A stretch of 43,264 nt of DNA from Escherichia phage Minorna. Positions 14,253-43,050 of the stretch are shown here, in pieces (the first letter of the stretch is position 1; each line of letters begins with the position of its first letter). The stretch lies in the sequence record NC_048172.1. The stretch is one strand, 5' to 3'. The notes beneath the pieces are model-generated. The model was given only the letters and a program-made list of their open reading frames with translations. It searched no databases and was not told where the DNA came from. Made by a program: the position numbers and the translations under genes.

Positions 14253-16631
14253 TTAAATCCTCCGTCTGCGTTGGTTGTAGCGCAGGATATAAGAGATATC
14301 CAGCACATTCAGCTCCTGAGAGCCTTTTGTATACAAAGTGATTTCGGTAGTGTCCGCGTTAGTACGGCACGGTACTGTGATGGTAGCCAAGTCCATACGC
14401 AAGGTCTGCCCCAGCGTCAGCTCCTTGGAGTTCATCAAGATACCTGTGAGTTCTCCACTCCAATCAACATCCCGGGGCGTATCCGTTACATGCACATCAA
14501 AGTGCCCAGAGTTACGTACTGCTACATCCAGACGCAGTAAGCGCACGTGCCCACTACCAACTAGCTTATCATTCTGATCCCGAAGTACTGGGGTAGTCAG
14601 AGTGAATGCGCTATTGTACCTGCGACCCAGGATATACTGCCCATCAGGAACACCCCGCACTACACTGAGCTTGTTTGTACCTGCAATATCCTTGAGACCC
14701 ACCTCAGTAGGCCCCATGGGGCTATTGGCTGGATACGTAAGGATTAAGTCCTCCTTGTATGTATCTGCCCAACCAACCGGACGCAGCACTGCTGGCACAT
14801 CTAGCACCCCTCCGCTTACGGTAACTTGCGTCTGCAAGTCCGAGTAGGCGTTCGTGTACTCCATGCCGAGGTTGTATCCCTCGCGTGGGTCCATAGACAG
14901 AATCAGGAGTTTATTGCCAGGGCTTGGCCCTTGTAAGTACAGGAACACCTCATCTTCGAGCGCCTGCACGCTCAGGATATTATACGGGAATGTCCACTGG
15001 TGCCAGGCTGCTTGCACCTTACCACCATCCTGTCCACCCCACATGAACTCATATACCAGCAGACCCTTGCGCTGTCCGGACATACGCACAAACGCCATAT
15101 TAGTGACACTGGAGTTTTGCATCTGCAGCACCCTCCCAGGGATATACCGAGGGAGGTGCACAGTCGCATCCTGCGTAGTATATTGTGAGGCAGTATACGG
15201 GGATGGGATAAGCTCCAGAATACCCGCGTAGCTGTTGTTGCGCTTGTTCGGGTAAATCACAGTCTGCCCAGCCATTACTGGCGTTACTCGGCTGTCACAT
15301 TCGTAGGTGCTAGTGATGCTAATACTGGCGTTGGTTGGAGTAAGCACTACTGACCCAGGCACCACGGCCTGCATACTGTTCGCAAACAGAACCAAGTCTC
15401 GGTTGAATTGTATAGCAGTACGGTACACGGAATCCTGGGCAGATGCCGAGCTAATGCTGATACGGTCCGTATCCAGCAGCGAAGTTACTGTAGAGCGATA
15501 GAATCGCTGATACAGCCCAGAGGCTGACATATCCACTACACTACCACTAAGCAGCACCAGACGGCCCTGGAATGCTGCTATACCTGTAATGTAGCCATTC
15601 TCAATAAACCCAGGATCCTGATTGTTTTCGTCGTTCCCAGCAAGACGCCCCTCCCATTCACGGGCAATGATGTTATCATCTGATGCCAGCTCCCTGGGCA
15701 TGTTAGTAATTTTGGAGATGCTACCATAGGCCCCAACTTCAGACCAGGTGCGGGAATTATAGTCGAACTGATACCACGCTGTCTCAGCTGAAGCTGTACC
15801 CACTTGACACATCGTGCCGTGAGCCTGTGCTGGTAGCTGTGCAGGGAGATCCTGTTCTTGATGAACCCTACTCTGCCCAGATGCCACGGCGTAGGTGTCT
15901 CCAGCAGACGTACTAACTACGAGATTAGGCAGCCCGGATATATACATATATCCCTCGAAACGGCTTATACTTCCACCAGCCGCCGTAATAGCTGAGCCTA
16001 TACCCCGACCATTAGGATCCCCGTCGATTAAGGCCCTAACTACATACGACGCGGAAACCCACTCTGCGGATTCGCTGTGACTTGCGTCAGGGGCATTGTA
16101 ATAACCTGATACGGAACCACCTGTCCAGGATACAGTAACCTCCCAGCGCTTCTGGAAGGCCACTGTCTTGATGTAGAAGAATCCCGTGGTGCTCGGGTCA
16201 ATTCGACCGGTGTTGTCCACGGTCGCATTTGGGGCCATCTCCGTATTCAGGATGTAGGTCAACCCAGCAATACTCGCAGTCTGGATAGAGGTCTGCCCTA
16301 CCGTTGTTACGAAGTACGGGTCGTTCCCGCTGTTTACAATGGATTTGCCATCCTTGGACAATAGCCACCAATTACCGTTACTGGTGTTAATCAGCAGGTG
16401 CCTACCGTCGGAACCACGCTCAACGTATTCTGTATACAGGGAGTCTAGGTCCGGATTGTCGATACTACTCTCCCATACAATCTCTGCTGGGGGTCGTCTA
16501 CGTATTCCGGATACCGGGTCACTGAGCATGTTCAGTTGCGCCCCAAGTTGCCCAGGTTGGCGCTCTCTTGGAATCTGCTGGGACACACCCTGGAGCAAAC
16601 TCTGAATGGTGCCTTCTAATGATTGCGCCAT
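14253..16631 (-). CDS. tail tubular protein B (T7 gp12-like)
   Basis: 792-aa ORF, size and position match T7 gp12 (about 794 aa), directly after tail tubular A. Confidence 0.8.
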   Translation of the reverse strand: MAQSLEGTIQSLLQGVSQQIPRERQPGQLGAQLNMLSDPVSGIRRRPPAEIVWESSIDNPDLDSLYTEYVERGSDGRHLLINTSNGNWWLLSKDGKSIVNSGNDPYFVTTVGQTSIQTASIAGLTYILNTEMAPNATVDNTGRIDPSTTGFFYIKTVAFQKRWEVTVSWTGGSVSGYYNAPDASHSESAEWVSASYVVRALIDGDPNGRGIGSAITAAGGSISRFEGYMYISGLPNLVVSTSAGDTYAVASGQSRVHQEQDLPAQLPAQAHGTMCQVGTASAETAWYQFDYNSRTWSEVGAYGSISKITNMPRELASDDNIIAREWEGRLAGNDENNQDPGFIENGYITGIAAFQGRLVLLSGSVVDMSASGLYQRFYRSTVTSLLDTDRISISSASAQDSVYRTAIQFNRDLVLFANSMQAVVPGSVVLTPTNASISITSTYECDSRVTPVMAGQTVIYPNKRNNSYAGILELIPSPYTASQYTTQDATVHLPRYIPGRVLQMQNSSVTNMAFVRMSGQRKGLLVYEFMWGGQDGGKVQAAWHQWTFPYNILSVQALEDEVFLYLQGPSPGNKLLILSMDPREGYNLGMEYTNAYSDLQTQVTVSGGVLDVPAVLRPVGWADTYKEDLILTYPANSPMGPTEVGLKDIAGTNKLSVVRGVPDGQYILGRRYNSAFTLTTPVLRDQNDKLVGSGHVRLLRLDVAVRNSGHFDVHVTDTPRDVDWSGELTGILMNSKELTLGQTLRMDLATITVPCRTNADTTEITLYTKGSQELNVLDISYILRYNQRRRRI

Positions 16632-16640
16632 AACCTCTCC

Positions 16641-17201
16641 TTAAATCATAAAGCGTGCACGACGAATACGACGTGCGAATCTGGTCTTGCTGGTACTGTA
16701 CTTCTGGTTACGCAGATGCTCTCGCAACACCAAGGACTTGTACCGCTCTGCCTCTGCAGCGTAGTTGGCGTAGTTACCGTCACTTCCGAGGTCATTCAGG
16801 TACACCTGCGCAGCAGTGTAGTTTGCAATCCACATGGCGGCATGCTCCGGAAGATCCTCAAAGTTAAGGTCCAGTACCACCTTAATCTTAACAGGGGAAT
16901 CGAAGTACTCGTCCTGCTCGACCAGGTTGTAAAGGTTTCCATCACGTACACCATACTTATTGTCGGAGCACGCATCATACACTGCTAGCTGGTTCCACGG
17001 AATTTTAATAAAACCATCAGTTGTAGGGGTAACCTCCCGCTCAACCACATTGAACCAGTAACCGGTACTGAGCAATCCTCGGCGATTACGCGCGAGCGCA
17101 GAACGTGCTAATCCCGCACTAAGGTTTGAAGTATTGATATCCATAACGCGAGATTCCCCTAGGGCTTCCAGCGTCAAATTAATGGCGTCTAACTCTCTCA
17201 T
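16641..17201 (-). CDS. tail tubular protein A (T7 gp11-like)
   Basis: Position after capsid and terminator; start set to ATG 17201 (MRELDAINLT..); the track ORF to 17321 would run through the terminator hairpin. Confidence 0.7.
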   Translation of the reverse strand: MRELDAINLTLEALGESRVMDINTSNLSAGLARSALARNRRGLLSTGYWFNVVEREVTPTTDGFIKIPWNQLAVYDACSDNKYGVRDGNLYNLVEQDEYFDSPVKIKVVLDLNFEDLPEHAAMWIANYTAAQVYLNDLGSDGNYANYAAEAERYKSLVLREHLRNQKYSTSKTRFARRIRRARFMI

Positions 17202-25522: not shown

Positions 25523-25941
25523 TTAATAGTCTCCCGAGCTTTGCGTCGTGCTCTAGCCTTACGGGCCTTGAGCTTCTGTGCCTGTGCCAGTTCTTCCGGC
25601 GTCTTGTGCGTATAGTATAGCATATCCGTAGGTTCGCGGTCTAGGTAATCGGCGACCCTACGTAGAGATTCAGCAATAGCCCTAGAAGATTGCATGCTAC
25701 CAACAATCCAGCGCCCAGCGGCAGATGCCACTTTGCCTTCCCCTCCATTGCACGAGCGATGAAGAGCACCCCGAATACGCCCAGTAATATGATCGTGGTC
25801 AACGACAACAGAATCACCAGTTACCCCCTTGATTGTGAAGTCCAAAGGTTTTCCACAAAGGAGGCATATGCCCCCCTGGTCTTGGGCAAGCTTAATAGCC
25901 ACGGAGCGAATTTGTGCCCGTGTAATCTTTCTTAGGGCCAT
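25519..25941 (-). CDS. recombination endonuclease VII (Holliday junction resolvase-like)
   Basis: 140 aa with Cys cluster and His/Asp motif (CLLCGKPL..VVDHDHITGRIRGALHRSCN) as in endonuclease VII-type proteins; basic C-terminus. Confidence 0.7.
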   Translation of the reverse strand: MALRKITRAQIRSVAIKLAQDQGGICLLCGKPLDFTIKGVTGDSVVVDHDHITGRIRGALHRSCNGGEGKVASAAGRWIVGSMQSSRAIAESLRRVADYLDREPTDMLYYTHKTPEELAQAQKLKARKARARRKARETIK

Positions 25942-26135
25942 ACTTCAATCTCCCCCACTACATCCAGCATAGCATTGTCGTGAATGAGAGAATCCAAATG
26001 CTCAACTGTTCTTCGATGTGTTTTGGGTGCTCGTTCACGCAACGCGTCCAGAATAGTTTCCAGTTCATCATGTTTCCCCTCATAGTATAACTCAATCGCC
26101 CGCAGGCTCATTTCCTTCGCAGACATCTTCGCCAT
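25932..26135 (-). CDS. hypothetical protein (about 67 aa)
   Basis: Start set to ATG 26135 (AGGAG about 10 nt upstream); the track ORF to 26204 overlaps the exonuclease gene extensively. Confidence 0.4.
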   Translation of the reverse strand: MAKMSAKEMSLRAIELYYEGKHDELETILDALRERAPKTHRRTVEHLDSLIHDNAMLDVVGEIEVWP

Positions 26136-27060
26136 TGTCTGGGTGCTCCTGTATCCACTGTATGTGCTGTTTATGGTACTCGTGCAGCGACTGCACCCAG
26201 TCACGTAGACTGGGAGTAGTCAACAGTGACATCAGATACTGATAGGCAGAATCTGATTGGGAGCGTCGCAGGAACAGGCATTCAGCCTCTGCGAGTACAT
26301 CTTGGTTGTTTCTAGCATAAGCCGCTACAACGAACTCTGCGGCGTCTTGCTCTGAGGTAATAGGGTAGATAGCATCAAAGGCCGTTCGCTTGCCACAGGG
26401 CTTCCCATCAAGCAACGTGATGCCTTTGACGTTATCTGCGTCGTCTCCTGCTAGCATCTGCCACCAGAAGAACTTCAAGCCGTGTGCTCGTACAGGCATA
26501 GCCTGGGTGTCATCCCACTTAATCCATCCGAAGGGATCCTCCAGTGCAGGCCACACTGTACCGGTTGGGATATCAAACCGGGCCATAGGACTGAGCCAGG
26601 AATCTTTATCCTGTGACATCAGGATACCGCGCTCACCGAAGGCGTATGAATCCATTACGAACAGGTCATCCGCCTCGAAGAAGTCACTGCTAACCACCTG
26701 GATACCTTGCTCAGAATACTGGTCCGGGTTATCAATCAGGTGCCGCTTCAAAGGGGCCTTCAGTGGTAGCTCCTGCCGGTTAGCTCGCTGCCCCTGGTAG
26801 GGCTTAGCCGTAGGCAGGTGCCAGCGCAAGCACTTAGCACAGCCCGTAGGCGTTAGATACGCCACTGCTTCTGAGCAACCGACCAGGAACATATCCTCAA
26901 GCAGCAGCTGATAGAAGCGGCGTATCGCGGTATCTAGCCGTTTCACTGTAGCAGCGGCTTTGTACACGCAAAAGTCCGCATCATACAGCAGAATCTTCCC
27001 AGAGTTCTGCGGAGCTAACTGCTCTGGGAGCTGGGATAAGTCAACCCCGTTGATAATCAT
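26092..27060 (-). CDS. 5'-3' exonuclease (FEN/T7 gp6-like)
   Basis: 322 aa with ILLYDADF near the N-terminus, FEADDL, and a GDDADNVKGI helix-hairpin-helix-like motif, as in flap endonuclease/5'-3' exonuclease proteins. Confidence 0.75.
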   Translation of the reverse strand: MIINGVDLSQLPEQLAPQNSGKILLYDADFCVYKAAATVKRLDTAIRRFYQLLLEDMFLVGCSEAVAYLTPTGCAKCLRWHLPTAKPYQGQRANRQELPLKAPLKRHLIDNPDQYSEQGIQVVSSDFFEADDLFVMDSYAFGERGILMSQDKDSWLSPMARFDIPTGTVWPALEDPFGWIKWDDTQAMPVRAHGLKFFWWQMLAGDDADNVKGITLLDGKPCGKRTAFDAIYPITSEQDAAEFVVAAYARNNQDVLAEAECLFLRRSQSDSAYQYLMSLLTTPSLRDWVQSLHEYHKQHIQWIQEHPDNGEDVCEGNEPAGD

Positions 27061-27218
27061 TAGCGCCCCGTAATATCGCGGGCCTTCTTATCGGCCCAGT
27101 TAACCCAACGTTCAGCCCACTTCGCCTTTGTGAGTTTATCACACAGATAGCAGAGCCCCGCCAAGGGGATTAGTGGGAGAATCAAAACTACGTAAATCGC
27201 ACGCTGTAAGTATAGCAT
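27060..27218 (-). CDS. small membrane protein (52 aa), absent from the ORF track (below 60 aa)
   Basis: ATG at 27218-27216 shares its A with the upstream TGA stop; its TAA stop overlaps the exonuclease ATG (TAATG); translation MLYLQRAIYVVLILPLIPLAGLCYLCDKLTKAKWAERWVNWADKKARDITGR has one hydrophobic helix. Confidence 0.35.
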   Translation of the reverse strand: MLYLQRAIYVVLILPLIPLAGLCYLCDKLTKAKWAERWVNWADKKARDITGR

Positions 27219-27598
27219 CAGCACGACTCCAACTCAGACAGCACCAGCACGGTACCAAGCATGTCCCCGATTACTTCCGGCGTACGCAGGCTCTGGTCTA
27301 CATCGTAGATACAGGAACCAATCTCCGCCAACCCGATACTGAGAGTACCTACGATGCGGATAACTGCCAGATCGTCCCCCTTCAACTTATCGGCATGTGC
27401 CGCCAGGTCGTTGTGTTCCTTGAAGGCGGTAGCGGCCAGCTCCAGATCCATACCGTATAGGGCAGCCAGTTTATCCAGCGCATCATAGAGTGTGCCCAAC
27501 TCATCACCATCTACAACATAATCATGCGCCGAGTCGTATACCACTGAAGCTACAGCTTTAGCCAGATTCTTGTATGCATCTAATACTTTATCCATCAA
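27218..27598 (-). CDS. hypothetical protein (126 aa, acidic)
   Basis: ORF in the coupled gene array; no recognisable motif. Confidence 0.5.
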   Translation of the reverse strand: MMDKVLDAYKNLAKAVASVVYDSAHDYVVDGDELGTLYDALDKLAALYGMDLELAATAFKEHNDLAAHADKLKGDDLAVIRIVGTLSIGLAEIGSCIYDVDQSLRTPEVIGDMLGTVLVLSELESC

Positions 27599-27853
27599 TC
27601 ATACCCCCAGAAAGTTTACTACTTCATCACGCTTAGCGCGCAGTTTATCAGCCTGTTCAGCGCACTTAGCCGCTTCAGCTTTGCTGCGTTTGGAGTCTTC
27701 TACTCGTGCCTCGGATTGTGCCGCCAGGCGCACCGCATCATCTGCAAACTTAATCGACAACTGCTCATTCAGTTGTGCCTTAGCGTCAGCACGTTTAGCT
27801 TCTGCTGTATAAGCTACACTTAGGAGTTTGGTGAGAATCTTGATGATATTCAT
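27599..27853 (-). CDS. hypothetical coiled-coil protein (84 aa)
   Basis: Lys/Ala/Glu-rich helical ORF. Confidence 0.45.
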   Translation of the reverse strand: MNIIKILTKLLSVAYTAEAKRADAKAQLNEQLSIKFADDAVRLAAQSEARVEDSKRSKAEAAKCAEQADKLRAKRDEVVNFLGV

Positions 27854-27866
27854 AGGCTTCCTCTAA

Positions 27867-27882
27867 GGCCCCAGGCGGGGCC
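27867..27882 (-). promoter_or_regulatory. intergenic GC hairpin (6-bp stem, 4-nt loop) just upstream of an RBS
   Basis: Plus strand ggcccc-aggc-ggggcc at 27867-27882, between the stop of the 280-aa gene and the SD of the next gene; no U-tract. Confidence 0.3.
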
Positions 27883-27905
27883 GTATTAGTTAGTAATAGG
27901 GTTGC

Positions 27906-28748
27906 TTAGGCTTGCGGTGCAGCAGGCGCTACAGGAGCCGCTGGAGCCACTGGCGCTGCCGGTGCTACAGGGGCGCTTGGTGCTGTTGGTGCTACTGGAG
28001 CACTCGGTGCCGCTGGCGCAGTGGGCGCAGCCGGGGCCTGCATAGACTGAGGGCTCGGAACCGAACCAGCGTTCAGCATAATATCCAGGGCACTGCCCGG
28101 GAAGTCTACAGCCTTGTACATATCCTCCTGAATCCAGTTCTTGCTCTTACCGTCGTCCTTGGTCCCCTCAATATATAAGCTATCCCAGGTTTCCTTGGTC
28201 GGGTTGTTCCACAAGAACAGCTTAATCTCGGAAGCATCCAGCTCAGGCATTTTAATCGGCTCACCGGTATTCGGGTCGAACTTCGGAATCGGACGGATTG
28301 CCGCGAGGTCTACAATGTTAGACTTCTTACCTGCTGCGCTGGTGTGCTCATCCAGCGGGAACACAAACGCCTGTCCCAGTCGCTGCGCAGCGTGCTTAAT
28401 GCTGCCATCGTAGTTGAGCTTGTCGAAGAACTTCTTGAAGCCCGCGCGCTCAAAGTTGCTGATGGTCATCGGATATGGACGAATACGCTTAACCTCACCG
28501 TTCGGGCCGTACACCACAATCCCGATGCGAACGTTCGGCGCGGCAGGCTTACCGGTAGGCTTACCACCTTTAGTCGGCAGGCGCTTACCAATTTCCACGT
28601 ACTCAGTAAAGTAACCGTAGTACTCACCCTTCGGCAGAAGCACATCCTCATACGCACCACCCTGGGCGGTCTCAGTCATATCAACTTCTTGAGTTTCAAT
28701 CGCAGCAGCAACCAGGGAGTTCAGAGTGTCCAGTGCATTCATAGTCAT
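27906..28748 (-). CDS. hypothetical protein with C-terminal Pro/Ala-rich repeat tail (possible DNA-binding protein)
   Basis: 280 aa; globular N-terminal part followed by about 43 aa of (A/V/T/S)PAAP-type repeats. Confidence 0.55.
   Translation of the reverse strand: MTMNALDTLNSLVAAAIETQEVDMTETAQGGAYEDVLLPKGEYYGYFTEYVEIGKRLPTKGGKPTGKPAAPNVRIGIVVYGPNGEVKRIRPYPMTISNFERAGFKKFFDKLNYDGSIKHAAQRLGQAFVFPLDEHTSAAGKKSNIVDLAAIRPIPKFDPNTGEPIKMPELDASEIKLFLWNNPTKETWDSLYIEGTKDDGKSKNWIQEDMYKAVDFPGSALDIMLNAGSVPSPQSMQAPAAPTAPAAPSAPVAPTAPSAPVAPAAPVAPAAPVAPAAPQA
27909..28037 (-). repeat. imperfect in-frame tandem DNA repeat encoding the Pro/Ala-rich tail
   Basis: Plus-strand series of gcNggNgc(c/t)ac(t/a)gg-like units (gctacaggagccgctggagccactggcgctgccggtgctacagg...). 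Confidence 0.7.
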
Positions 28749-28799
28749 ATAATTACGTCCTCGTTTAGTTCAAGTAATATTTACGTGCAGATGCAGGGC

Positions 28800-28964
28800 T
28801 TAGAGTTTTGAAGCGACGGCGGCGGCAACGAACACCAGGATTATAGCCAGCGCAGCAGGGCCCCAGAACGGGAGCAGCACCCACAGCCAAGACCAGGTGA
28901 TAACTCCGGTCAGTTTCAAGGTTACAAAGATAAGGCCCAGTACAGAACAGATTCCCATTTTCAT
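28800..28964 (-). CDS. small hydrophobic membrane protein (2 predicted TM helices)
   Basis: Translation MKMGICSVLGLIFVTLKLTGVITWSWLWVLLPFWGPAALAIILVFVAAAVASKL; start set to ATG 28964 (GAGGTG upstream; alternative ATG 28958); track ORF extends to 29006. Confidence 0.45.
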   Translation of the reverse strand: MKMGICSVLGLIFVTLKLTGVITWSWLWVLLPFWGPAALAIILVFVAAAVASKL

Positions 28965-28977
28965 AATCACCTCTACG

Positions 28978-29958
28978 TTATTTAGAACGGCCAACCCAAC
29001 GACCATCGTCGTCGAGCAGCATCGGAATTAGCTGCGGACAACCCTCTGTGATTACCAGTACGCCTAGGATTGGTTTCTTACGGGCTAACCTACCGTATGC
29101 AAAGGCCAGACTCTTACGGTCAATCAAGCAGCCTGCATACGCGCCAAAATATAGTGCCGTCGAAGACGCTGCATACTGAACTTCGAACCGCCCATGCTCG
29201 TGACCGAGAACCAGTGAAGTGCGCTCATGGGACGCATTAAGCATGAAGTCACCTGATACTTGATGCTGGAAGCGGACAGGTCCCAGCGGTGTATTAAGTA
29301 CCCAAGCATCGGCCCACGACCATGCCGGAGCACCGTGCTCAGGGAACAAGATATCGCGGTACTTCTTAATAAATTGCACCGGCAAACCGTGAGCCTTGGC
29401 GCGACGATACACCAGACTCCCGTGATTGGAATCGCATACGAGAAGATTCGGGAAGAGTTCATGCAGCTGCTCCAGTACTAACTTAGCCTTCTCCAGTTCC
29501 ACCCCGGCGCTATCCAGGTTCGGGTTGCTTTCGTGGAATGAAATAGCGTGGCCGTCAGTCTCATCCCCAACTTGTACAACCATATCCGGGCAGTAAGTGT
29601 CTCGGACAGACTCTAAGAAGTCCATAGCGTCTACGTGGGTGTAAGGGGCATGCAGATCCCCTACCACTAAGATGCGGTGACACACCTCCGGGACGAAGGT
29701 TTTACCTAGGTCATCAGTCGGACTTGGCTGTATAAGCTTTAATGCCTCCTTCATATGTGACACAGCCTTGCCCTTGCTACCACCGTGATCTAGGAATATG
29801 CTGCGCCAATACTTAACCATCTGACGATATACTACTGGCTCACTTAACCCAGCCAGCTTATTATAGGCAGCTGCAGCATCCACGTTAGAGCTATACTTGC
29901 TCAGGATGTCTACATGTTGTTCTTTGGTGAACAGCTTTATTGTGTTTAACTTAGGCAT
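28978..29958 (-). CDS. calcineurin-like metallophosphoesterase
   Basis: 326 aa with ordered metallophosphatase motifs: VVGDLHAP (GDxH), VQVGDETDGH (GDxxD), DSNHG (GNH), GHEHG. Confidence 0.7.
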   Translation of the reverse strand: MPKLNTIKLFTKEQHVDILSKYSSNVDAAAAYNKLAGLSEPVVYRQMVKYWRSIFLDHGGSKGKAVSHMKEALKLIQPSPTDDLGKTFVPEVCHRILVVGDLHAPYTHVDAMDFLESVRDTYCPDMVVQVGDETDGHAISFHESNPNLDSAGVELEKAKLVLEQLHELFPNLLVCDSNHGSLVYRRAKAHGLPVQFIKKYRDILFPEHGAPAWSWADAWVLNTPLGPVRFQHQVSGDFMLNASHERTSLVLGHEHGRFEVQYAASSTALYFGAYAGCLIDRKSLAFAYGRLARKKPILGVLVITEGCPQLIPMLLDDDGRWVGRSK

Positions 29959-30385
29959 TCCAGCTCCTGTTACTTATTACGTCACTGATTACGTGTACAC
30001 CTACACCATACTTATTGGCGAAGTATTGTCGCACACCTTTCTTGTAAGGGATATAGTTATTTCTAATATCCTGCACAGCATCCCAAGATAGCTTCGCTTT
30101 TGGGTTTCTCTCTCCACGCACATCCGGGTTCCTTCCACGTTCCGCACGGTCTCTCATATTATCTAAATGTGTCCCCAGCACGAGGTGTTCTGGATTAATA
30201 CATCTAGGATTATCACAGGTATGCCTAACAGATAAGCCAGCTATAACATCTAAGCTTAGCCCGTTATGTTCTGCATACACCACCCTGTGTAGCAGTTCTA
30301 AGCGCTTGGTTGGTTTGTACCAAGCCCTACGATAGCCATTCTTATTAAGGCATTTAGTATACCCGTGGTCAATACACATCGACAT
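29951..30385 (-). CDS. HNH homing endonuclease
   Basis: 144 aa with HRVVYAEHNG..VRHTCDNPRCINPEHLVLGTHLDNM, a typical phage HNH nuclease motif; preceded by a 160-nt AT-rich non-coding segment. Confidence 0.8.
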   Translation of the reverse strand: MSMCIDHGYTKCLNKNGYRRAWYKPTKRLELLHRVVYAEHNGLSLDVIAGLSVRHTCDNPRCINPEHLVLGTHLDNMRDRAERGRNPDVRGERNPKAKLSWDAVQDIRNNYIPYKKGVRQYFANKYGVGVHVISDVISNRSWNA

Positions 30386-30546
30386 TTGGTATCCTCTTAT
30401 GTTGTTCCTACTCGTATCACATTAATTCTCGGTAAATCACAGAATCAAGCCAGAGTCAACAAATAATTTTATTTAATTATCTGCTTGACCCCAGCTAATT
30501 CTCGTGTTACCCTAACCCCCTACACCGCCCAAGGGTCCACCTATCA

Positions 30547-39802: not shown

Positions 39803-40006
39803 TTAATCCTTGAATACTACGTTGCGGGCCACGAGGGTAATCCCACTACCAGCTACTACATCGCCAACTGTGGCATGTGCCTGCATCCACCCACCATACA
39901 CTTTGAGGTATAACTCGGCGGGTTTGTGCAGCGCGTTATGCAGTTGCACTCGGTACAGTACCCCGTACTGACTCTTGTACAAGTCATACTTAACTAGTTC
40001 ATTCAT
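39803..40006 (-). CDS. hypothetical early protein (67 aa)
   Basis: ATG overlaps the upstream stop in an ATGA arrangement. Confidence 0.45.
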   Translation of the reverse strand: MNELVKYDLYKSQYGVLYRVQLHNALHKPAELYLKVYGGWMQAHATVGDVVAGSGITLVARNVVFKD

Positions 40007-42549: not shown

Positions 42550-42771
42550 CCATTTAACGCTACACAAAGCAGAGCGCAGTGACGTAACGGGAGTGGAGTC
42601 ACGGAGCGATGCGGTGACTGTGTAGGTAATGCTTACTCCCTACGGTCGTAATATAGGGCATTACTAGGGGATACTAGTGAATAGTAGTAAGTAGTATGTA
42701 TCTAGTGCCCTAAAACCCTCCTACTCGTGTAACATCATTTCTAAATAGCTTTCGAATGAAAGTAAGGGGAA

Positions 42772-42792
42772 AGGGATAGCTCTAGGGATAGC
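42772..42792. repeat. second copy of the gggatagc-tctagggatagc repeat
   Basis: Plus strand agggatagctctagggatagc, about 270 nt from the first copy. Confidence 0.85.
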
Positions 42793-42879
42793 AAAGGATA
42801 ACGCTAGGTGGCGGATAGTGGAAGTGCGCCCTAGTGGGGAGCGCGCAGCGTAGCATATAATCGGCACAATGTAAAGCAC

Positions 42880-42913
42880 TAGAGATAACCCTAGAGATAG
42901 CTCTAGAGATAGC
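42880..42913. repeat. variant repeat ctagagataaccctagagatagctctagagatagc
   Basis: Same CTAG-(G/A)GATA(G/A)C unit family with G to A variants; agagataaccctag recurs at 43051-43064. Confidence 0.85.
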
Positions 42914-43050
42914 ATATAGACGCACTAGCAGCGCACTGGGCGGCCCACTCGGCACATACTATGGCCCACTACTGGCCCACTGGGCGGCCCGCTAGAGGTC
43001 CGCAAAATAAGCAAGGCAGAGCGCACCTCTACGCCCCACAGAGAGCACGC

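Follow-up and report, generated by a model that had tools for sequence, protein, structure and literature searches.

Two small predicted membrane proteins encoded within the DNA-metabolism block of Drulisvirus phages

Introduction

Bacteriophages encode small membrane proteins that act on the host envelope in rather different ways. T4 Imm and HK97 gp15 are small inner-membrane exclusion proteins, which are made before the late phase of infection, are non-lytic and non-essential, and are often accessory genes. The phi29 proteins p16.7 and p1 are membrane organisers of phage DNA replication, and SPO1 gp56 is an early single-pass protein by which division of the host cell is blocked; all three are small, carry an N-terminal transmembrane (TM) segment, are expressed together with early or replication genes and act on the membrane without lysing it. 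Here, we analysed two short reading frames in the genome of Escherichia phage Minorna (NC_048172.1; 43,264 nucleotides, the whole of which is called the window in the following), both on the minus strand and both located among genes of DNA metabolism: ORF1 (27060-27218), which codes for a predicted single-pass membrane protein of 52 amino acids (aa), and ORF2 (28800-28964), which codes for a 54-aa protein predicted to form a two-helix hairpin in the membrane.

Small membrane proteins among the early and middle genes of phages are a known kind, and both ORFs are already catalogued as hypothetical proteins or as members of PHROG families (ORF1 in phrog_7652, ORF2 in phrog_1374, both labelled 'unknown function'). 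A first-pass annotation of the window, made from the nucleotide sequence alone, had described them as unannotated small membrane proteins and proposed superinfection exclusion, interference with the host membrane or lysis timing as possible roles. The term 'unannotated' fits in part: both are recorded as 'hypothetical protein' in most GenBank relatives, while ORF1 is missing from the annotation of some. In RefSeq KP-Rio/2015 (NC_047779) the ORF1 homologue is unannotated though its frame is intact (16799-16957), and the same applies to NTUH-K2044-K1-1, HenuGS, henu-LMZ and KMI3. Since Drulisvirus phages are widely used as candidates for Klebsiella therapy, conserved but uncharacterised genes of this genus matter for safety and engineering.

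Results and discussion

ORF1 and ORF2 are genuine genes. With moderate confidence we read both as genes for small membrane proteins that would condition or protect the membrane of the infected cell without lysing it. This confidence is carried almost wholly by the first part of the statement, namely that they are real small membrane proteins and not lysis genes; the specific protective mechanism, taken by itself, is a tentative proposal that we find rather doubtful. The window is a complete Drulisvirus genome (KP34-like; Autographiviridae, Slopekvirinae) with its genes on the minus strand; in IMG/VR it is recorded as UViG_2974544971. The 4-kb stretch around the two ORFs is matched at 80-95% identity by 253 phage records, nearly all of them from Drulisvirus phages of Klebsiella or Escherichia.

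That both are coding genes follows from their conservation, frame-specific purifying selection, ribosome-binding sites, stop/start coupling and PHROG matches. Coding tests were performed with 40 related loci taken from IMG/VR, 38 of which cover the position of ORF2. All 40 loci contain an intact ORF1 of 52 aa, whose ratio of non-synonymous to synonymous substitution rates (dN/dS) is 0.12, compared to 1.5 and 2.3 in the other two frames. Its ATG (27218-27216) has one base in common with the TGA of the upstream gene (TGATG), and its TAA (27062-27060) has one base in common with the ATG of the 5'-3' exonuclease gene (TAATG), to which it is translationally coupled (26092-27060, minus strand; phrog_107, E 4e-69); the TAATG overlap is retained in nearly all Drulisvirus loci that lack an HNH insertion. 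The upstream gene (27218-27598, minus strand) codes for 125 or 126 aa and belongs to phrog_6607, to which no function is assigned. Inside its 3' end lies the GGAG Shine-Dalgarno motif of ORF1 (27227-27230, minus strand), and the upstream 20-mers of the 40 loci all show a purine-rich GGAG or GGGG 8 nt ahead of the start codon. ORF1 matches phrog_7652 with E 8.2e-32, residues 1-52 aligning with profile positions 2-53 of 53.

For ORF2, the ATG is located at 28964 and the stop codon at 28800-28802. A GAGGTG Shine-Dalgarno motif (28968-28973, minus strand) stands 4 nt upstream of the ATG, and this or a similar motif is found in relatives whatever gene lies upstream; in the window this is a metallo-phosphoesterase gene (28978-29958, minus strand; phrog_221, E 9e-106), whose stop codon is separated from ORF2 by 13 nt. 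A longer reading of 68 aa starting at 29006, which would overlap the phosphoesterase gene, was rejected because relatives with other upstream genes keep the same Shine-Dalgarno motif and ATG. Codons 1-35 of ORF2 have a dN/dS of 0.11, compared to 2.2 and 0.9 in the other frames, and residues 1-51 align with positions 14-64 of the 89-position phrog_1374 profile (E 4.5e-19).

The coordinates, the one-base overlaps and the single TM segment that the first-pass annotation had given for ORF1 agree with our data, as do the coordinates and the two TM segments of ORF2, the latter seen both in hydropathy and as a hairpin in the AlphaFold2 model. Its placement of both ORFs among replication genes is likewise borne out by their exonuclease, single-strand DNA-binding protein (SSB)-like, phosphoesterase and endonuclease VII neighbours. 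Conservation in relatives, which it had left to be checked, was found for ORF1 in 40 of 40 and for ORF2 in 26 of 38 loci, in both cases with purifying selection.

Hydropathy reveals one hydrophobic segment in ORF1, with a Kyte-Doolittle mean over 15 residues of up to 2.5. The corresponding TM segment spans approximately residues 7-26 (27141-27200, minus strand) and contains the invariant residues P15 and P18 (PLxP motif). AlphaFold2 models the protein as a long helix kinked at P15 (residues 14-15; pLDDT 85.8). Residues 27-52 (27063-27140, minus strand) form, judged by charge and hydrophobic moment, a basic C-terminal helix striped with tryptophan and with a net charge of +4, which makes ORF1 a hydrophobic and at the same time basic protein. 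The charge bias of type A (see below), to which the window's allele belongs, suggests an N-out/C-in orientation. ORF2 shows two hydrophobic segments, and its AlphaFold2 model (pLDDT 92.6) is a helical hairpin of residues 5-18 and 26-53. Transmembrane notes are also given in the annotation of phage AttikonH1.

In length and position ORF1 recalls gp5.9 of T7, a phage of a related virus family. T7 gp5.9, encoded directly in front of exonuclease gene 6, has 52 aa and is a soluble, acidic inhibitor of RecBCD. ORF1 has the same length and the same place relative to an exonuclease gene, but is hydrophobic and basic; homology was rejected and the resemblance taken as a positional coincidence.

With the exonuclease gene as anchor, the slot upstream of it was then surveyed in 73 loci. 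Unless an HNH gene is inserted, the Drulisvirus loci all code for a single-pass protein of 52-55 aa at this position; in one of them the first ATG gives a reading of 40 aa in the same frame. The proteins fall into two types, A (45 loci, including the allele of the window) and B (18 loci), which are only 28-39% (approximately 35%) identical to each other. Irrespective of the type, the adjacent exonuclease is 90-98% and the upstream gene approximately 80% identical, and a comparison of the window with two type B genomes gave nucleotide identities near 0.9 that drop to approximately 0.53 within the ORF1 interval. When 46 genes were compared among six type A and seven type B genomes, ORF1 turned out to be the only dimorphic gene, with an identity of 0.76 within and 0.33 between types, whereas within-type and between-type values of all other genes differed by no more than ±0.06. 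ORF1 exists as two deeply diverged, freely reassorting alleles. In GenBank we found 163 type A and 83 type B records, set against the 253 records that match the surrounding 4-kb region, so that one or the other type is present in nearly all Drulisvirus-like records. Beyond this genus the family is not seen: a database of 5.8 billion proteins yielded only 13 clusters of relatives, all on contigs similar in size to a Drulisvirus genome, and ORF1 is a core gene restricted to Drulisvirus. The sharply bounded two-allele structure, unique in the genome, appears to be without precedent in the searched literature.

What could maintain two such alleles? None of the 46 phage genes compared in the 13 genomes varies together with the type, from which we infer that ORF1 is directed at a host component or at the membrane rather than at a variable phage partner. 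A dimorphic pattern of this kind usually marks genes engaged in conflict, be it with the host or with another phage. In Shigella phage Buco (L113, NC_048174), with an exonuclease of 67% identity, the slot upstream of the exonuclease gene is occupied by a gene for a single-pass protein of 65 aa (15887-16081), which overlaps the exonuclease start by 4 nt. The Buco protein was rejected as a homologue of ORF1 (hhalign probability 0.1%); position and architecture of the slot are conserved while the sequence is not. The dimorphism together with this unrelated replacement would be the pattern expected of a conflict gene.

The residues shared by types A and B are L12, P15 and P18 in the membrane helix and W38, W41, A42 and T50-G51 in the tail. 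The codons for T50-G51 (ACGGGG) are kept in both types and lie just upstream of the exonuclease ATG, i.e. at the position of its ribosome-binding site, and their conservation may reflect a constraint at the nucleotide rather than the protein level.

The position of ORF1 also raises the question whether it serves its neighbours directly, as a membrane tether that anchors the exonuclease or the replicating DNA in the manner of phi29 p16.7 and p1. ORF1 resembles these proteins and SPO1 gp56 in layout and genome position, albeit without sequence similarity. The tight translational coupling of ORF1 to both the exonuclease and the upstream gene in nearly all Drulisvirus loci would fit a tether, the basic C-terminal helix could touch nucleic acid or an acidic partner, and the Buco slot is filled by a small single-pass protein despite the unrelated sequence. 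We nevertheless regard this explanation as improbable. The tail following the TM segment is a single helix of 26 residues, and no DNA-binding domain or other domain match was detected in it, which sets it apart from p16.7. The type of ORF1 switches without a change in the exonuclease or any other phage protein, which is unexpected for a specific protein-protein anchor; several relatives tolerate HNH genes between ORF1 and the exonuclease gene; and the slot holds no such small gene in those more distant relatives whose exonuclease is 38% identical.

ORF2 differs greatly from ORF1. The two had been treated as alike in the first-pass annotation, a view that our data do not sustain: ORF1 is a dimorphic core gene of one lineage, while the accessory gene ORF2 belongs to a family with members in many phages. 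Of the 38 loci that cover its position, 26 carry ORF2 and 12 lack it; in the latter, the phosphoesterase and SSB-like genes either stand approximately 55 bp apart or enclose a gene for an HNH-AP2 homing endonuclease. A contig that matches the window almost perfectly on both flanks has no ORF2, and in other relatives HNH genes occur on either side of it. The metagenomic contig UViG_3300045988_000227, in which ORF1 is identical but ORF2 is missing, offers a natural comparison. ORF2 is an accessory, dispensable gene in a hot spot of HNH homing endonucleases. More generally, HNH(-AP2) genes have repeatedly been inserted near the slot of ORF2, and some relatives also carry such an insertion between ORF1 and the exonuclease gene (L011, L016, L018, L020, L025, L039, L043 and L045-L047), and the region around the slot is a recombination hot spot. 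The window itself has an HNH gene (29951-30385, minus strand) that overlaps the start of the phosphoesterase gene.

The conservation of ORF2 is split along its length. Its N-terminal 35 codons (28860-28964, minus strand), which comprise the first TM segment (TM1), the loop LKLTGxIxWSWxWV and the beginning of the second TM segment (TM2), are nearly invariant: a comparison of the gene halves gave approximately 92% nucleotide identity across relatives for the first 105 nt, with a dN/dS of 0.01-0.08. The remainder of TM2 (28803-28859, minus strand) is hypervariable, with 30-72% nucleotide identity and a dN/dS of 0.5-0.65 over at least the last 57 nt and protein lengths between 54 and 65 aa. This variability probably results from a weak constraint, under which any hydrophobic helix would do, and from recombination near homing endonuclease sites. 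The near-invariant/hypervariable split beside a homing endonuclease hot spot appears, within the searched literature, not to have been described before.

One could argue at this point that neither protein matters much as a protein: ORF1 might be a coupling spacer that holds the ribosome-binding site of the exonuclease, and ORF2 a passenger of homing endonucleases. The coincidence of the invariant ACGGGG codons with that ribosome-binding site, the place of the dispensable ORF2 in an HNH insertion hot spot and the weakly constrained C-terminal half of ORF2 are in line with this. Against it stand the strong frame-specific purifying selection over all of ORF1 and over codons 1-35 of ORF2, the conservation of P15, P18, W38 and W41 between the ORF1 types, far from the ribosome-binding site, and the retention of the ORF2 motif across thousands of clusters and in unrelated phages without an HNH context. 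We consider a lack of protein-level function highly improbable.

The family to which ORF2 belongs is large. A profile search against 1.84 billion representative proteins returned 12,474 clusters at E <= 1e-3; the best 150 of these are mostly single hairpins of 55-110 aa, some with two to five hairpins in tandem and one with 12. Invariant residues of the family are L9, F13 and L16, which share one face of TM1, as well as W24, W26, V29 and P32; K17, L18, I22, S25, W28 and W34 are nearly invariant. Searched with tblastn, the conserved half of ORF2 was found in 524 phage records from hosts such as Rheinheimera, Mycobacterium, Bacillus, Gordonia, Proteus and Vibrio, while 72,556 plasmids gave no match to the family. 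A member with five repeats is chromosomal and adjoins a ribosomal protein operon. Two ORF2 relatives carry the JGI labels 'regulation of membrane protease activity' and 'ClpP family protease', which probably are artefacts of hydrophobic similarity and were not used.

ORF2 shares a hairpin motif with Tmemb_185A (PF10269, 'Transmembrane Fragile-X-F protein'; human TMEM185A/B), in which a helix is followed by LKL-x4-WSWxWV-xxP-W and a second helix. Tmemb_185A proteins are polytopic with several such repeats, whereas ORF2 consists of one 54-aa hairpin. The direct match of ORF2 to PF10269 (16.9 bits, E 0.005) does not reach the gathering cut-off of 23.1 bits. However, our phage-hairpin profile (A1) matches the PF10269-positive proteins P0121, a repeat protein of 1,289 aa (E 8e-36), and P0122 (E 2e-35); the single-hairpin relatives P0127, P0140 and P0169 exceed the PF10269 cut-off; and hhalign gave a probability of 91% for the phage alignment against the PF10269-positive repeat protein. 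The small tryptophan-rich proteins of TIGR04438/PF27910 are related to Tmemb_185A as well. Through these intermediate sequences and profiles, ORF2 is assigned as a homologue of the Tmemb_185A repeat unit. Structure comparison of the ORF2 model gave no match in the PDB, and among viral models it matched only uncharacterised members of its own family. To our knowledge, the function of TMEM185A itself is not known, so the relationship yields no mechanism, and in the searched literature no paper addressed what the Tmemb_185A-like proteins of phages do. Within this literature, the recognition of ORF2 as one Tmemb_185A repeat unit, from a huge phage family that recurs in replication modules, appears to be new. 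The family, with more than 12,000 clusters and apparently unstudied, links phage mini-proteins to an uncharacterised human membrane protein.

Family members are recurrently found beside genes of nucleic acid metabolism. They adjoin RNA ligase 2 in a T4-like Proteus phage, lie near endonuclease VII and primase genes in a mycobacteriophage and between DNA polymerase and exonuclease genes in Rheinheimera and Alteromonas phages; on further contigs they follow directly after a DNA ligase gene, lie downstream of RusA or, where the gene order is T7-like, stand between the genes of DNA polymerase A and endonuclease I. A metallophosphoesterase gene near the hairpin gene, as in the window, also occurs in the unrelated phage contigs L048/L049 (which carry P0127) and in the right arm of a mycobacteriophage; this neighbourhood may be ordinary content of replication modules.

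Protein families that include both single units and fused repeats usually act as oligomers. As the ORF2 unit is fused 2-12 times in cellular Tmemb_185A-like proteins, the phage hairpin probably forms homo-oligomers. Such an assembly could be a viroporin-like channel that alters the flux of ions or small molecules during replication instead of excluding other phages. The coexistence of single hairpins with homologues of 2-12 fused repeats is the pattern expected of oligomeric membrane assemblies, and the invariant TM1 face (L9, F13, L16), the tryptophan-rich loop and the independence of the family from host type would suit a channel. Apart from K17, though, no polar or charged residue is available to line a pore, no solved structure resembles the model, and the fHe-Kpn01 orthologue described below was not clearly toxic; we rate the channel as unlikely. 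A generic accessory function of the oligomeric hairpin is suggested by the dispensability of ORF2, its spread over phages of unrelated hosts and the invariant loop on the periplasmic side.

Both ORFs have a size and architecture that are also found in lysis proteins, and lysis timing was among the roles proposed in the first-pass annotation. ORF2 resembles class II holins and pinholins such as S21 of phage 21 in that these have approximately 50-70 aa, two TM segments and both ends probably in the cytoplasm, and could thus be a holin, pinholin or antiholin; ORF1, with one TM segment and a basic C-terminal tail, could be a single-pass holin or antiholin that tunes holin triggering. Unlike S21, ORF2 lies outside a lysis cassette, has neither a charged C-terminal tail nor a dual-start motif and matches no holin family; for both ORFs, no holin family was found in Pfam or PHROGs at E <= 1. 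The window contains a complete spanin/holin/endolysin cassette (u-spanin type; 1690-2921, its holin matching phrog_20) approximately 24 kb away, and relatives without ORF2, about a third of those covering the position, still have the lysis cassette. In a fully annotated relative the genome runs from early genes through primase, helicase, DNA polymerase, phosphoesterase and SSB-like protein to exonuclease, endonuclease VII, RNA polymerase, the structural genes and a terminal spanin/holin/endolysin cassette. ORF1 and ORF2 lie within the middle, DNA-metabolism block and not among the late genes, and the PHROG matches of their neighbours in the window agree with this placement. In the contexts examined, no holin or endolysin gene adjoins a member of the ORF2 family; the nearest pair was found on the contig with the DNA ligase gene, approximately 3 kb away and beyond a block of genes on the opposite strand.

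Experimental data on toxicity come from an E. coli screen of the hypothetical proteins of the Drulisvirus phage fHe-Kpn01 (Spruit et al. 2020, PMC7291057). ORF2 has gp25 of this phage as its orthologue, and ORF1 corresponds to gp30, which is of type B. With a non-toxic control as reference, the transformation ratio was 1.03 ± 0.21 for Gp30, which was non-toxic; Gp25 had a ratio of 0.49 ± 0.31, with replicates of 0.80 and 0.18, and the authors did not call it toxic (PMC7291057). The growth arrest or killing that defines toxins of the Hok/TisB type was thus not seen with the type B counterpart of ORF1. The low ratio of 0.18 in one of the two Gp25 replicates speaks for a lytic role, whereas the non-toxic Gp30, the overall result for Gp25, the separate cassette and the family contexts disfavour it. 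Lysis timing is, in our view, very unlikely for either protein.

With lysis disfavoured, we return to the reading of ORF1 and ORF2 as non-lytic membrane proteins that condition or protect the infected cell. In this model, both would be middle-class genes co-transcribed with the genes of replication and recombination, and each would encode a small protein of the cytoplasmic membrane outside the lysis machinery. ORF1, coupled in translation on both sides, would contribute a proline-kinked membrane helix followed by a basic, tryptophan-striped helix; ORF2 would contribute the near-invariant TM1 and its tryptophan-rich loop (LKLTGxIxWSWxWV..P.W), the rest of TM2 serving as a freely varying hydrophobic anchor. 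Both proteins would enter the host inner membrane while the phage DNA is replicated and alter this membrane in a non-lethal way, such that the infected cell is protected, either because DNA entry of a second phage is excluded or because a host membrane protein or a membrane-acting defence is interfered with. Superinfection exclusion and host-membrane interference, as proposed in the first-pass annotation, are a reasonable guess in this regard. Exclusion proteins of the T4 Imm type are matched by ORF2 in its two-TM layout and dispensability and by ORF1 in its small single-pass layout, but neither ORF belongs to a known exclusion family: searches of Pfam, PHROGs, NCBIfam and PADLOC gave no superinfection-immunity, exclusion or defence family for either, and Tmemb_185A and PetG were the only Pfam matches.

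Several observations weigh against this reading, and an exclusion function would at present be a conjecture. The ORF2 family occurs in phages of Gram-negative, Gram-positive and actinobacterial hosts with differing machines for DNA delivery, which argues against a specific contact that blocks DNA entry; we know of no exclusion protein with a host spread nearly as wide. The internal virion (ejection) proteins show no covariation with the ORF1 type, which speaks against type-specific exclusion, and the charge bias is ambiguous for the topology of type B and of the Buco protein. The Gp25 data are noisy, and the counterpart of ORF2 may be mildly toxic. Gp25 and Gp30 were undetected by liquid chromatography-tandem mass spectrometry of fHe-Kpn01 particles (PMC7291057), a result of little weight since both proteins are small and hydrophobic with few usable tryptic peptides. 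For Drulisvirus phages, the searched literature yielded neither a transcriptome or ribosome-profiling study nor a knockout.

A bolder scenario can be drawn for both genes. ORF1 would then be a conflict locus kept dimorphic by balancing selection, with at least two ancient alleles and the Buco replacement aimed at, or evading, a variable factor of the host inner membrane, and ORF2 would be a free-standing unit of the TMEM185 fold, used as an oligomer by thousands of unrelated phage lineages during DNA replication. As a whole, we judge this scenario to be a long shot. If the TMEM185-fold reading holds true, the role of ORF2 in phages would provide the first functional handle on human TMEM185A/B. 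Both genes are small and easily deleted or swapped, and natural presence/absence and allele variants exist, which should make their function directly accessible to experiments.

Neighbouring genes and further observations

The gene directly downstream of ORF2 (27906-28748, minus strand; phrog_862) codes for the SSB-like protein, also called 'p21' or 'large tegument protein' and annotated as single-strand DNA-binding protein in AttikonH1. Labels of this protein are inconsistent among relatives and include Fe-S oxidoreductase, tegument protein and SSB. Its long C-terminal tail (27906-28040, minus strand) is rich in proline and alanine and of low complexity (APAAPTAPAAPSAPVAP...). The SSB-like gene is separated by 52 nt from an 84-aa gene, and this gap contains a perfect GC-rich hairpin (GGCCCC-AGGC-GGGGCC, 27867-27882), which could be an RNA processing site or a terminator of the middle operon. 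A scan of the region 26000-30500 for promoters and terminators found no sigma-70 promoter and no convincing terminator on the minus strand. An autonomous, moron-like expression of ORF1 or ORF2 was considered, and the scan gave no sign of it. Among 5,426 E. coli genomes, there was no DNA match to 27060-28964.

On the other side of ORF1, the small gene phrog_6923 (25932-26204, minus strand) overlaps the 3' end of the exonuclease gene, by approximately 44 nt if the ORF is read as relatives annotate it and by 113 nt from the first start codon of the window; it is mislabelled 'beta-galactosidase' in several relatives.

Two observations concern the early region. The early gene at 39803-40006 (minus strand) is hypervariable, with a mean pairwise identity of 0.43-0.45 among 11 Drulisvirus genomes, far below that of all other shared genes except ORF1 compared between types. 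A further early-region reading frame of 64 aa (42721-42915, minus strand) is strongly hydrophobic and kept in 8 of 13 genomes at approximately 61% identity; it may correspond to a small early ORF of AttikonH1 that is noted with two transmembrane domains, and would be a third small membrane protein encoded outside the lysis cassette.

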